A stretch of DNA of 64,000 bases from an uncultured Acidobacteriota bacterium (GCA_963837495.1 CAWINF010000001.1:841843-905842), one strand, 5' to 3'; shown: positions 38,330-54,735, counted from the first letter of the stretch. Program-made: numbers and translations. The notes: a model not told the origin generated them from the letters alone.

Positions 38330-41300
38330 ATGACTCGTCTCGAAGATCTGAAGCCGGGTGCCGCGGTCAAAGGAATTCTGCCGGATGTCCTGGTGACGGT
38401 CCTGAGCGCCAAGCGTCACGGCGACAACGTCATCGAGCTGACCTTCAAGGACGCTGCCGGGCGACCGGGCAATCAACTCGTTTACCGCGAGGACGAACCT
38501 AGGCTGGAAGTCGTTTCCCAGGGTCGGCCCTGGAGTTTCGACGCGGACGGCGCACTTTTCCGGCTGGTCTCCGAGGCCTACCGCATCCACCTGGCTTACC
38601 TGTTCGATCCGCTCCTCGCCGTCCACACCTCTCTCGTGGACCCGCTCCCCCACCAGATAACCGCCGTCTACGAAGAGATGCTCTCCCGCCAACCCCTGCG
38701 CTTCCTCCTTGCCGATGATCCTGGGGCGGGAAAGACAATCATGGCCGGCCTCTTTATCAAGGAGCTCATGGTCCGTGGCGATCTCCACCGCTGCATGATC
38801 GTCTGCCCGGGCATGCTGGCCGAGCAGTGGCAGGACGAGCTCAACGACAAGTTCCACCTGCCCTTCGAGATCCTGACCAACGACAAGCTCGAATCCGCGC
38901 GCACGGGCAACTGGTTCCTTGAGAATCCGCTCGTGATCTGCCGCCTCGACAAGCTCTCGCGCAACGAAGACGTCCAGGTCAAGCTCCAGCAGTCCGACTG
39001 GGACCTCATCGTCTGCGACGAGGCACACAAGATGTCTGCCTCCTTCTTTGGCGGCGAAATCAAGGAAACCAAACGCCACAAGCTGGGCCGCCTCCTCTCG
39101 GGCCTCACGCGCCACTTCCTCCTGATGACGGCCACGCCGCACAACGGGAAGGAGGAGGACTTCCAGCTCTTCATGGCGCTTCTGGACGGCGACCGCTTCG
39201 AGGGCAAGTTCCGTGACGGCGTCCACCTCGTGGACACTTCCGACCTCATGCGGCGCCTGGTCAAGGAGCAGCTCCTCAAATTCGATGGAACACCTCTTTT
39301 CCCGGAGCGAATCGCTTATAGCCCGACCTACAAGCTCTCGGACCTGGAAGCCCAGCTCTACAAGGAAGTCACCGACTACATCCGTGAGGAGTTCAACCGC
39401 GCGGACGCCCTCGAAAGCGAGGGACGCAGGGGTACCGTCGGATTCGCGCTCACGATCCTGCAGCGCCGTCTCGCCTCCTCGCCCGAGGCCATCTATCAGT
39501 CACTCAGGCGCCGTCGCGAAAGACTCGAGAAGCGCCTCCGCGAGGAGCAGCTCTTAAAGCGCGGCGCCGAAGTGCCTCTCGAAGCCACGCCGAAATTGCC
39601 CGTGCTCTCGATGGAGGATCTCGAAGACCTAGACGAGGCTCCGGACTCCGAGATCGAGGAGACCGAAGAGAAGGTCGTCGATCAGGCTACGGCGGCGCGG
39701 ACGATCGCAGAGCTCGAACAGGAGATCGCCACCCTCGTAAGGCTCGAAGCCCTCGCTCTGAGAGTTCTCCGCAGCGGAACCGACAAGAAATGGGAAGAGC
39801 TCTCGAAGCTCCTCCAGCACGACGCTGAGATGTTCGACGCCCACGGCCACCGCCGCAAGCTCGTCATCTTCACCGAGCATCGCGACACGCTGAACTACCT
39901 GGCCGCGAAGATCCGCAGTCTCCTCGGCCGTCCCGAGGAAATCGTCACGATCCACGGAGGCATGGGCCGCGACGAGCGCCGCAAGGCGCAGACAGCCTTC
40001 ACGCAAGACAAGACCGTTCAGATCCTCGTCGCCACGGACGCCGCCGGCGAGGGCATCAACCTCCAGCGCGCCCACCTGATGGTCAACTACGACATCCCCT
40101 GGAACCCCAACCGCATCGAGCAGCGCTTCGGGCGTATCCACCGTATCGGCCAGAAGGAGGTCTGCCACCTCTGGAATCTCGTCGCGGAGGAGACCCGGGA
40201 AGGCGACGTCTTCCGCCGCCTGCTCGAGAAGCTCGCCGTCGCTCGCGAAGCCCTGGGCGGCGGCGTCTTCGACATCCTCGGAAAGGTCTTCCAGGGCCAC
40301 GAGCTGCGCGATCTCCTGATCGAGGCCATTCGCTACGGCGACCGTCCAGACGTCAAGGCGCGCCTCACTCAGGTGGTAGATGTAGCGCTCGATCGCGACA
40401 ACCTCCGCAGGCTGCTCGAAGAGCACGCTCTCGCCCGTGATTCGATGGACGCGGCCCGCGTCCAGAGGATCCGGGAGGAAATGGAGAAGGCCGAGGCCCG
40501 CCGTCTCCAACCCCACTTCATTGCCGAGTTCTTCCTGGAAGCCTTCGCGCTCCTCGGCGGCAAGATCCACGAAAGGGAATCAAGCCGCTACGAGATCACC
40601 CACGTCCCCGCATCGATTCGCAACCGAGACCGCCAGATCGGGACACGCGAAGCCTTGCTGACCCGCTACGAGCGCATCACCTTCGAGAAGGATCTCATCT
40701 CGATCCCCGGCAAGCCGCTCGCCGAGTTCGTCTGCCCGGGCCATCCACTCCTCGATTCGACGATTGACCTCATCCTTGAACGCCACCGCGACCTCATGAA
40801 GCAAGGCGCCGTACTCGTGGACCCGAACGACCCTAGCGACCAGCCTCGCGTTCTCTTCTACCTCGAACACTCCATCCAGGACGCTCGTCCCGACAGGAGC
40901 GGCGGCCGACGAATCGTTTCCAGGCAGATGCAGTTCGTCGAGATCGGCGAGGACAGCGAGTCTCGCACGGCAGGTTACGCGCCGTACCTCGACTACCGCC
41001 CGCTGACCGACGATGAGCGCCAGGCAGTCTCCGACGGCCTGAAATCCTGGGGCCAGATCGACTTCGAGTCTCAGGCCGTGGGCTACGCCATCAACACGAT
41101 GGTCCCAAAGCATCTGGAAGAAGTACGTTCGCGAAAGGAAGAGCTGATCTCGAAGACCTTGGCCGCCGTCAAGGACCGTCTCACCAAGGAGATCAACTAC
41201 TGGGACCATCGCTCCGAGGAGCTAAAAGCACAGGAAATGGCCGGCAGGACGCCCAAGCTGAACTCCGGAAAGGCCCGCGAACGCGCGAACGAGCTCGAAG

Positions 41301-53542: not shown

Positions 53543-54735
53543 ATCCTGTGGACCGTGGCGCACCCGGTGCTGCGATGGGTTCCATTGCCAGGGCCTCGCT
53601 CGTTCAAGAGGTCTACCGTTGTACCCACTGCGTTCCGCTGGTCTTACCCTTCGCCACTTGCACGGATGCAGGCCGCTTCTTCCGGTTTCCGCCGGTGATC
53701 GGAGCTCCAGGCGCCGCAGAAGTCCTTTTTGTGGGAATTAACCCCCGTGTTTCTCCCTCCAATCTTCCTTTGCACACCGCGCTGATGCGGGACATTTCCG
53801 CTTTCCAGGAACTCGCAGCTAATAGCTATCGCGAGAGGGACTACATCGGACCGCAAGGGCAGGAGAGTCACTATTCCCTTCATCTCTGGATTGCGAGTCA
53901 ACTGTTCCCCGGTCGTCGTTTCGCTTCCGTTGCCGCGGTAACCGAGTTGTTCTTCTGCGCGTCAGAATCTTCCGCAAGACTCCCGGTCGAGCAGAGCCCT
54001 TGCGCGGACAAGTATCTTGGCAGAGTACTAGCTTCGACGCGCCCTAAGCTGGTCGTTGCCGTCGGCAGCAGGGTTGCGAACTACTTGGCTGGGAGGTTTC
54101 CGAGGCAGGCACAGTACGCAATCGCGGCCTGGGGAGACCACGGTCGAGCGCCAATCATTCCGGTGCCGCATCCTAACTCTAGGGGCGAGAAGCACTCAAG
54201 AACGTTGAGGGCAGTAGAAGTTGCCCGGGAATATCTAATTTCGGGGAATGTGCCAGCCCTGCCCGCGGTATCGGCAACTACAGCGCGAGAACCGAGACGG
54301 TTATCGGCGTCGTTGAGAGGTCACGCTGGGCCCCGCGATGCCGGGCGGCGCGACGGGAGAGTGGATGCAACGCCAGCCGCACCACGCGCTAGCCGTTCTG
54401 AGCTCGCTCGGCTCGTGCAAGACCCCGAGCCCGGGAGCATACAGAGGGATTGGACCGGCAACGACAAGAGCGCCAGGAACCACAACGGCATTGTAGACCT
54501 GAGAGAGAGTCCGCTGAGGTTGCGCCTTTCCTGGAAGAGGAACCCAGATGACCAAGCCAAATTCATCGGGGTCTTTGATCTAGACCTTCCACGCCTTCTT
54601 GCTGCCAACTACATTAGAGTTGAGGGAAATCGGCCAAGTGCCGTTCGTCTTCGATTCTGGCATGGCTACGACGATGTCATCTACATCCAGGTCAATAGCC
54701 AGACCAGAGGTTTGCCGCTAGGGCGAATCGTGTAG
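53539..54735 (+). CDS. Uracil-DNA-glycosylase-superfamily-like N-terminal domain (~220 aa) fused to an unknown ~170-aa C-terminal domain; ATGA overlap with the Nmad2-like gene
   Basis: VLFVGINPRVSP (motif A position), ELFFCASESS, KLVVAVGSRVANYL, IIPVPHPNSRGE (motif B position). Confidence 0.4.
   Translation: MNPVDRGAPGAAMGSIARASLVQEVYRCTHCVPLVLPFATCTDAGRFFRFPPVIGAPGAAEVLFVGINPRVSPSNLPLHTALMRDISAFQELAANSYRERDYIGPQGQESHYSLHLWIASQLFPGRRFASVAAVTELFFCASESSARLPVEQSPCADKYLGRVLASTRPKLVVAVGSRVANYLAGRFPRQAQYAIAAWGDHGRAPIIPVPHPNSRGEKHSRTLRAVEVAREYLISGNVPALPAVSATTAREPRRLSASLRGHAGPRDAGRRDGRVDATPAAPRASRSELARLVQDPEPGSIQRDWTGNDKSARNHNGIVDLRESPLRLRLSWKRNPDDQAKFIGVFDLDLPRLLAANYIRVEGNRPSAVRLRFWHGYDDVIYIQVNSQTRGLPLGRIV

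Follow-up and report, generated by a model that had tools for sequence, protein, structure and literature searches.

A probable composite of independent defence modules around an Hma core in an uncultured Acidobacteriota bacterium

Introduction

Hma systems, which combine a helicase, a methylase and an ATPase, were named in 2021, when 1,638 of them were found in 26 phyla (Payne et al. 2021, PMC8565338). They are also known as Type-1 of the BREX-related (BR) systems centred on DUF499 proteins that were described in a 2026 paper, where the triad of ATPase, methyltransferase and helicase is found to be homologous to BrxC, BrxXI and BrxHII of type 3 BREX, without PglZ, where an N-terminal HEPN domain is reported on the Type-1 ATPase in 1370 taxa and where the auxiliary effectors named as recurring in BR systems include proteins of the HNH/GmrSD, HEPN and Schlafen types (PMC12839542). 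Here we describe a cluster of nine genes at positions 38330-54735 of a stretch of 64,000 nucleotides from an uncultured Acidobacteriota bacterium (GCA_963837495.1 CAWINF010000001.1:841843-905842), to which we refer as the window. A preliminary description of this sequence had regarded the cluster as a single defence system with no described counterpart. We find that three of its genes are assigned to Hma by their sequence, and that the locus is very probably a composite of independent defence modules and not one machine built from nine genes.

The embedding of defence genes in Hma loci is already in print (bioRxiv 10.1101/2024.01.29.577857; Liu 2024, PMC11232893). By a published rule, a Hma locus contains each of its three genes once, all on the same strand, and no more than three embedded genes may separate neighbours; such embedded genes were found in 931 of 1,485 systems (62.7%), where they make up 376 distinct cassettes and are co-oriented in 96.7% (bioRxiv 10.1101/2024.01.29.577857). 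The same study relied on such 'guilt by embedding' for the validation of new defences and includes HEC-05, the BrxU-like 'Hma-embedded candidate 05', while Liu 2024 puts insertions at 66.5% of hma loci (PMC11232893). The usual cargo is of the Septu, PARIS and ATPase-TOPRIM types (bioRxiv 10.1101/2024.01.29.577857; PMC11232893). The present locus displays the textbook architecture of guilt by embedding known for Hma and BREX-related systems, and filing it there averts a false claim of novelty; what is new is the combination of cargo only, on a known kind of Hma.

A nine-gene cluster with an Hma core

A mechanical listing of open reading frames (ORFs) in the window returns nine ORFs on the + strand at the coordinates previously claimed. 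The genes are numbered as follows, with protein lengths in amino acids:

38330-41830, + strand: gene 1, hmaA, 1166 amino acids
41827-42435, + strand: gene 2, darT, 202 amino acids
42432-43562, + strand: gene 3, darG; the mechanical ORF starts at TTG 42372
43617-44414, + strand: gene 4, Ymh-HEPN, 265 amino acids, GTG start
44420-47296, + strand: gene 5, hmaB, 958 amino acids
47300-50677, + strand: gene 6, hmaC, 1125 amino acids
50734-52866, + strand: gene 7, GmrSD-AlbA_2, 710 amino acids
52874-53542, + strand: gene 8, Nmad2, 222 amino acids
53539-54735, + strand: gene 9, UDG-like, 398 amino acids

Direct reading of the sequence bears out the reported junctions, with ATGA overlaps of stop and start codons at 41827-41830 (hmaA/darT), 42432-42435 (darT/darG) and 53539-53542 (Nmad2/gene 9), and gaps of 54 nucleotides (nt) between genes 3 and 4, 5 nt between genes 4 and 5, 3 nt between genes 5 and 6, 56 nt between genes 6 and 7 and 7 nt between genes 7 and 8. 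We place the start of darG at ATG 42432 and not at the upstream TTG because alignments to models of DarG begin at residue 4-5 when translation is taken to start at this ATG and because the darT/darG overlap is kept in a close relative described below. The start of gene 4 at GTG 43617 is uncertain, since the exact protein is absent from the protein collection.

We searched the proteins of the window against the profile libraries of Pfam, NCBIfam and PADLOC-DB. The earlier domain calls for genes 1-6 and 8 are supported by Pfam, in the case of gene 3 also by the DarG model of NCBIfam and in that of gene 4 by TIGR02391, and genes 1-7 and 9 retain their predicted catalytic or signature motifs in intact form. 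Gene 1 matches the PADLOC model of HmaA with 1753.6 bits over residues 1-1163 of its 1166, with far lower scores for other models of that library (DrmD 409, BrxHI 336 and BrxHII 294 bits). Its Pfam domains are SNF2-rel_dom, Helicase_C and NOV_C, the former DUF3883, and it contains a Walker A motif (GAGKT, residue 132), a DEAH motif (residue 230) and, near residue 1090, the D...EVK signature of a C-terminal PD-(D/E)xK nuclease domain. Gene 5 aligns over residues 2-953 with the PADLOC model of HmaB (1031 bits) and also matches DUF1156 of Pfam (77 bits). Its motif I (FDPFAGGGS, of the form FxGxG) and motif IV (DPPY, residue 549) are those of an N6-adenine-type DNA methyltransferase, and the protein has more than 8000 homologues, with 65-77% identity across phyla. 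Gene 6 matches HmaC of PADLOC with 1133.8 bits over residues 167-1124 and contains a Walker A motif (GGGKT, residue 250). Whereas the previous assignment of DUF499 to this protein was correct, it had overlooked an N-terminal HEPN_Swt1 domain (Pfam, residues 11-125, 127 bits) with the motif RKRWAH at residue 96.

Because of these near full-length matches to the models of HmaA, HmaB and HmaC, we assign genes 1, 5 and 6 by sequence to Hma, alias the Type-1 DUF499-centred BR system, in its HEPN-fused variant. The locus shares with described members the SNF2-NOV_C helicase, the DUF1156 methyltransferase and the DUF499 ATPase, whose genes follow each other as A-B-C on a single strand, and the HEPN domain at the N-terminus of the ATPase, found in 72 of 80 related loci (see below) and in 1370 taxa (PMC12839542). 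Its arrangement as A-(3 genes)-B-C, with each gene present once and all on the + strand, complies with the published locus rule, including the three genes embedded between hmaA and hmaB (bioRxiv 10.1101/2024.01.29.577857). It differs in its particular cargo, with DarT being found in none of the 80 sampled loci. The claim that the locus has no described counterpart is thus not tenable: PADLOC assigns its core to Hma with 1754, 1031 and 1134 bits, it also names DarT, DarG and HEC-05, and the three embedded genes fit the rule.

The notion of a co-directional, operon-like defence cluster is upheld. A simple consensus scan, whose counts are near the shuffled expectation, found no terminator-like sites on the + strand between 38330 and 54735, which fits one transcript and, given the nature of the scan, lends it weak support. 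Co-orientation and tight spacing most likely reflect the shared transcription of cargo that was inserted at a known recombination hotspot.

Relationship to BREX and other methylation-based systems

The preliminary description had left open a relationship to BREX type 3 and remarked on the lack of PglZ. Both statements agree with our results, as the triad is a BREX-related system without PglZ (PMC12839542) and no PglZ is found in the nine genes or in 20 flanking ORFs. The ATPase, methyltransferase (BrxXI) and helicase of BREX type 3 have homologous counterparts here (PMC12839542), but the ATPase is of the DUF499 and not of the BrxC/DUF6079 type. We rejected BREX type 3 itself in view of the missing PglZ and the match of the ATPase to DUF499 and HmaC. 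Neither BrxA nor BrxL was found among the ORFs scanned, which comprise the nine genes and their flanks.

A Type-2 BR system, consisting of a PLD/HKD-helicase, DUF1156, DUF499 and DUF3780 proteins, was rejected as well, since the respective NCBIfam models score far below their cutoffs (phospholipD_antiphage 171 against 1100, DUF1156_antiphage 97 against 1000 and DUF499_antiphage 163 against 1200) and Pfam detects no PLD domain. Similarly, DISARM was rejected with a score of 383.5 for NCBIfam DISARM_DrmD at a cutoff of 610, a PADLOC score of 409 bits for DrmD compared to 1754 bits for HmaA, and no DUF1998 protein among the scanned ORFs.

Cargo embedded between hmaA and hmaB

The variable slot between hmaA and hmaB holds three genes. 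Gene 2 matches DarT in Pfam (115.6 bits) and in PADLOC and is related to the DarT structures 7omu and 7omv of the Protein Data Bank (PDB), with a score below the equivalog cutoff of the NCBIfam DarT model (97 against 150). Its candidate catalytic residue Glu153 aligns with a position that is occupied by alanine in 7omu, the crystallised DarTG of Thermosipho. We take this alanine to be an engineered inactivating substitution. Gene 3 exceeds the equivalog cutoff of the NCBIfam model antitoxin_DarG (272.3 against 250 bits, residues 5-352), scores 293 bits with DarG of PADLOC and contains the Macro domain of Pfam and the C-terminal domain. Judged by these matches, both genes make up a DarTG2-type pair of a predicted ADP-ribosyltransferase toxin acting on single-stranded DNA (ssDNA) and a macrodomain ADP-ribosylglycohydrolase antitoxin, where the thymidine-specific DarTG2 type is assigned because the antitoxin carries a macrodomain. 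Gene 4 contains a C-terminal Ymh domain (Pfam Hypoth_Ymh, 89.6 bits; TIGR02391, 61.3 bits at a cutoff of 39.45) with an Rx4H motif (RNPRAH, residue 230), preceded by an N-terminal half without domain assignment, and its product is predicted to act as an RNase effector.

DarTG can function on its own and occurs nested in type I restriction-modification systems as well. The present arrangement resembles the nested form in that a macrodomain-type pair is nested in co-orientation within a methylation-based restriction system, with which it is presumably co-transcribed, at a site that is regarded as a recombination hotspot for defence cargo. It differs in the host, which is Hma and not HsdMSR, in that neither an RptR-like regulator nor an M48 peptidase was identified here, in the translational coupling of darT to a helicase gene and in the extra HEPN gene that follows darG. 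No mention of DarT was found in the main texts of Payne 2024 (including its supplement), PMC12839542 and PMC8565338, nor in the abstract and one section of Liu 2024 (PMC11232893). A DarTG2 pair that is nested in Hma, with a conserved ATGA junction between helicase and toxin, is therefore a cargo unreported in the Hma and BR papers searched.

The base composition of the cluster is uneven. The guanine and cytosine content at third codon positions (GC3) amounts to 0.81 in hmaA, 0.75 in hmaB and 0.79 in hmaC, compared to 0.63 in darT, 0.67 in darG and 0.68 in the Ymh gene, and to 0.72, 0.66 and 0.61 in genes 7, 8 and 9. All three of the latter are lower in overall GC content than hmaABC, with gene 7 showing the lowest value of the locus (0.553). 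The difference between darT/darG and hmaA suggests a later insertion of the pair.

Conservation of gene order across Hma loci

To compare gene order, 80 Hma loci were recovered with an alignment of 18 HmaB homologues from contigs representing one genome per species in many phyla. Of these loci, 64 contain HmaA, 70 contain HmaC and 72 the N-terminus of HmaC with its HEPN fusion, and the triad nearly always keeps the A-B-C order on one strand. Among 55 loci in which the interval between hmaA and hmaB could be measured, it is longer than 300 nt in 44, with a maximum of 6.3 kilobases (kb), and the interval between hmaB and hmaC is above this length in 31 of 65. ORFs located in the A-B slot of other loci match defence models of the HEC-01A, AriA, GajA and AbiLi type, the usual cargo of Hma. 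In tblastn searches, none of the 80 loci yielded relatives of DarT, of the Ymh HEPN protein, of Nmad2 or of gene 9. A DarG-like gene is present in a single locus, where it is positioned after hmaB, and GmrSD-like matches in three are weak, cover 10-35% of the protein and are located between hmaA and hmaB and not after hmaC. In other loci, the ORFs found in the 3.5 kb that follow hmaC (n=143) are heterogeneous and often of housekeeping type, with GmrSD_N in one of them, which defines hmaC as the 3' edge of the conserved unit.

A closer view is provided by a metagenomic contig (ENA ERZ25039533 contig_44034, in the following termed L081), which we reached via a DarT that is at least 90% identical within the same protein cluster. 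L081 shows 83% nucleotide identity to the window over 38329-43534, ending at the 3' end of darG, and keeps both the hmaA/darT and the darT/darG ATGA overlaps. At the protein level, the identity of HmaA is mostly 85-90% (74-93% depending on the segment), that of DarT 87% and that of DarG 76-90%, compared to 68% for HmaB and 56% for HmaC. In the slot of window positions 43563-44419, the Ymh HEPN gene is replaced by a gene for a protein of 407 residues (5661-6884 of L081), which is DUF8370/DUF8371 by precomputed matches with our own Pfam scan being empty, and no counterparts of genes 7-9 follow hmaC of L081. Several genes of this contig are split, probably as a consequence of assembly errors. The comparison shows a mosaic in which hmaA, darT and darG move as a block, the slot behind them has exchanged its gene and hmaB and hmaC have a separate history, in agreement with the contrast in GC3 between hmaABC and the six other genes. 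The window and L081 thus provide a natural comparison for the swapping of cassettes at the 3' end of darG inside Hma.

These data bear on the view that all nine genes form one integrated, undescribed and interdependent defence system. Their common direction, gaps of at most 56 nt, three ATGA overlaps and the lack of terminator-like sites on the + strand inside the locus would favour this view. However, embedded cargo is as a rule co-oriented (96.7%, bioRxiv 10.1101/2024.01.29.577857), the core is a described Hma, DarT, Ymh-HEPN, Nmad2 and gene 9 do not accompany Hma in the sampled loci and GmrSD appears there in weak and partial form within the A-B slot. Moreover, L081 lacks genes 4, 7, 8 and 9, the base composition is mosaic, and where Nmad2 or gene 9 is found at other loci, it is accompanied neither by the other nor by Hma. 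The integrated system is in our view highly improbable, and largely refuted already by the synteny data. The assignment of the core by a defence annotation tool and accessory genes that are not syntenic were the outcomes that the preliminary description had itself named as speaking against its proposal, and in substance both were found. The picture that is best supported is that of a composite, in light of the described Hma core, the non-syntenic accessory genes and the mosaics seen from L081 and from GC3.

A second question concerns the junction between hmaA and darT, whose translational coupling had been emphasized previously and is real, being kept in one relative of 83% identity. HmaA and DarTG could form a dedicated sub-unit, where HmaA exposes ssDNA for DarT or where the translation of DarT is stoichiometrically tied to that of the helicase, with the remaining genes being independent. 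Such a unit would account for an ATGA junction that is identical in L081 despite a nucleotide divergence of about 17%, and for the closer relationship of HmaA, DarT and DarG to their L081 counterparts than that of HmaB and HmaC, which indicates that the three travel together. Conversely, both contigs represent a single event at the level of one lineage, DarT is missing from the 80 other Hma loci, DarTG works alone and embedded in type I restriction-modification systems, and the GC3 of darT and darG (0.63-0.67) suggests insertion after hmaA (0.81) had been in place. The closest DarT representatives beyond L081, at about 55% identity, reside on contigs of 1.2-2.4 kb, which are too short to judge their context, and show no remnant of HmaA upstream within that length. 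We thus consider a dedicated HmaA-DarTG unit to be quite unlikely and favour DarTG as independent cargo of a composite locus.

Genes downstream of hmaC

Gene 7 contains GmrSD_N (103 bits) and SLFN_AlbA_2 (64 bits) domains of Pfam, the latter as C-terminal AlbA_2/Schlafen-like domain at residues 555-696. It matches HEC-05 of PADLOC with 148 bits in an alignment extending to residue 534 and BrxU in the PDB (7p9k, E=1.4e-11), and it displays a DGQQR motif of the NTPase at residue 76 and a DHIFP motif of His-Me type at residue 435. Of the domains previously proposed for this protein, GmrSD_N and AlbA_2 are recovered by Pfam, whereas DUF1524 is not called; the presence of the nuclease domain is instead indicated by the DHIFP motif and the alignment to HEC-05 and BrxU. 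On this basis, gene 7 is classified as a GmrSD/BrxU-like, modification-dependent type IV restriction enzyme that adjoins Hma without being part of it. The arrangement has a parallel in BREX with an embedded BrxU (pEFER), where a methylation system targeting unmodified DNA is also paired with a type IV enzyme of the GmrSD family, and gene 7 shares the DGQQR and DHIxP motifs of BrxU and HEC-05. Unlike BrxU, gene 7 follows hmaC and is not embedded, it carries the extra C-terminal AlbA_2/Schlafen-like domain and its identity to BrxU is low.

Gene 8 matches Nmad2 of Pfam with 182.7 bits and is predicted to adopt a PUA-like fold (YTH/EVE/ASCH-like). The family has 1271 detectable homologues; sequence searches against solved structures gave no match, and literature searches for the name returned unrelated gene symbols only. 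Its members are strongly conserved, with 50-65% identity across matches, and share the invariant polar residues D12, N18, C24, C29, K30, R34, D41, H118, N122, D126, Q160 and H162. Such a pattern would suit an enzyme or a pocket for a specific ligand better than a passive domain, and the protein is a candidate reader of, or enzyme for, a modified base. The neighbours of Nmad2 in metagenome loci are partly defence-like (PLD nuclease, AAA_15/21, REase-ARP and DUF2357).

For gene 9, the relation to UDG proposed before is upheld, in this case with the help of a structure model, which displays a UDG fold with motifs A and B and places the protein in the UDG superfamily; by sequence, matches to solved structures are marginal. 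A linker of about 40 residues is modelled at low confidence. The protein contains the motifs GINPR (residue 66) and HPNSRGE (residue 211) and four conserved cysteines (CxxC...C...C). We take the cysteines and the MUG/TDG-like GINPR motif to recall family 2 and family 4/5 UDGs, and the cysteines possibly constitute an iron-sulfur site as in family 4/5. The family is very rare, with 19 matches in an index of 5.8 billion proteins, all of which share the UDG-like domain, whereas the beta-rich C-terminal domain of about 110 residues is present in few and found no structural match (residues ~285-398). Gene 9 is thus a candidate defence DNA glycosylase. Brig1 and Brig2 are anti-phage glycosylases of the UDG family that excise modified bases (PMC11078745; bioRxiv 10.1101/2025.10.29.685425). 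Gene 9 is set apart from them, by comparison of descriptions and not of sequences, in its four conserved cysteines, the MUG/TDG-like GINPR motif, the extra C-terminal domain and the rarity of its family, with its activity being only predicted.

By domain and fold, genes 7-9 all look aimed at modified DNA, and they might constitute one cooperating module consisting of a reader and two effectors. They are linked by a gap of 7 nt and an ATGA overlap, their domains and folds are tied to the recognition or excision of modified bases, all three are lower in GC than hmaABC, and BREX with BrxU offers a precedent for joint coverage of unmodified and modified DNA. Nevertheless, a relative of gene 9 was found near Nmad2 in none of 80 metagenome loci, 53 of which extend for 900 nt or more downstream, the GmrSD-like matches in the vicinity of Nmad2 score weakly and are located at a distance of 5 kb on the opposite strand, and no Pfam family occurs more than twice among 69 ORFs neighbouring Nmad2. 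The relatives of gene 9 reside in three differing contexts, none of which includes Nmad2, GmrSD or Hma. The surveyed Nmad2 and gene 9 loci, which do not overlap, thus provide no evidence for genes 7-9 as a conserved unit, and we regard a cooperating module as unlikely. Within the composite, the three genes would instead have been acquired independently, and Nmad2 and the rare UDG-fold protein represent two candidate single-gene defences beside a type IV enzyme.

A layered defence composed of independent modules

In the composite locus, HmaB would mark host DNA by N6-adenine-type methylation, as suggested by its domains and the cited papers. The DUF499 ATPase of HmaC may assemble or scan and sense foreign DNA, and HmaC is predicted to act as sensor or scaffold and additionally as back-up RNase, a role that would be shared by the HEPN domains of HmaC and of the Ymh protein. 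HmaA, with its SNF2 translocase and C-terminal PD-(D/E)xK nickase, would restrict unmarked DNA and so be the effector of Hma, as its domains and the cited papers suggest. Liu 2024 reports that the helicase domain and the NOV_C nickase domain of HmaA are both required for defence against T4 (PMC11232893). The variable slot between hmaA and hmaB would host two items, the DarTG2-type pair and the Ymh-type HEPN RNase, and DarT would ADP-ribosylate ssDNA and block replication once DarG is overcome, leading to abortive infection. Downstream of hmaC, GmrSD would cut modified DNA, while Nmad2 and gene 9 could serve to recognise modified bases and to remove them. Immunity could thus be layered, with unmodified invaders being met by Hma, hypermodified phage DNA that escapes methylation-based discrimination by the tail genes, and phages disabling both by the abortive-infection cargo. 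This logic matches that of BREX with BrxU, which covers unmodified and modified DNA (bioRxiv 10.1101/2024.01.29.577857).

Several points weigh against this account. The 80 sampled loci were ranked by similarity of HmaB and do not include the source genome, and very distant analogues may have escaped the test of accessory-gene synteny, which relied on tblastn at E<=1e-5. The scan for promoters and terminators is uncalibrated for a host of high GC content. The conservation of the hmaA/darT overlap in two lineages leaves room for a functional coupling beyond co-transcription. Finally, the mechanism of Hma itself is mostly inferred: in the only Hma tested experimentally, over-expression of HmaB left the sensitivity to T4 unaltered, according to Liu 2024 (PMC11232893), so that a model resembling restriction-modification is not yet proven.

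It is conceivable, although we would not expect it, that Nmad2 and the UDG-fold protein are new base-excision defence genes that recognise and remove a hypermodified base of phage DNA, be it singly or in combination. If true, a new glycosylase family, possibly in an arrangement of reader plus glycosylase, would be added to base-excision immunity. To the same degree it is conceivable that HmaA and DarT cooperate in function, with the translocase handing ssDNA to DarT.

Genomic surroundings

The GC content of the window falls from about 0.66 to about 0.61 near ~35 kb and does not recover before the window ends. Located in this GC-poor part are the PDC-M70 pair, the HNH gene, the Hma locus including its cargo and four or more toxin-antitoxin cassettes, and the right-hand edge of this defence and toxin-antitoxin island is located beyond the window. 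The flanks correspond to those indicated in the preliminary description, with a divergent HNH_2 gene upstream and an array of toxin-antitoxin genes downstream. Features outside of the cluster are:

14768-15128, + strand: tmRNA gene, tag peptide ANNSNLALAA
31785-35372, + strand: UvrD-family helicase with C-terminal PD-(D/E)xK nuclease, 1195 amino acids, partial similarity to GajB and RTasHel of PADLOC
35400-36464 and 36464-37186, + strand: overlapping pair PDC-M70A/PDC-M70B, full-length PADLOC matches of 440 and 313 bits
37175-38143, - strand: HNH_2 gene, divergent from hmaA
downstream of the cluster: cassettes Phd/ParE, Unstab_antitox/ParE, Phd/PIN and DUF5615

The tmRNA gene is of interest in this context since such genes are common integration sites of islands. 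The 3' end of this gene recurs nowhere else in the window over 14 nt or more, and hence no boundary of the island is marked in this way. The helicase-nuclease at 31785-35372 could be a housekeeping enzyme of the AddA/AdnB type or a further defence gene. The PDC-M70 pair, located just upstream of the divergent HNH gene, is absent from the island as previously outlined; in Pfam it shows a weak DUF294 nucleotidyltransferase-like match and an AP_endonuc_2 TIM-barrel match. In the downstream array, an ORF on the - strand (55596-56441) encodes 281 residues, of which only 188-274 match ParE, which points either to a true start much further downstream or to a toxin that is extended at length on its N-terminal side.

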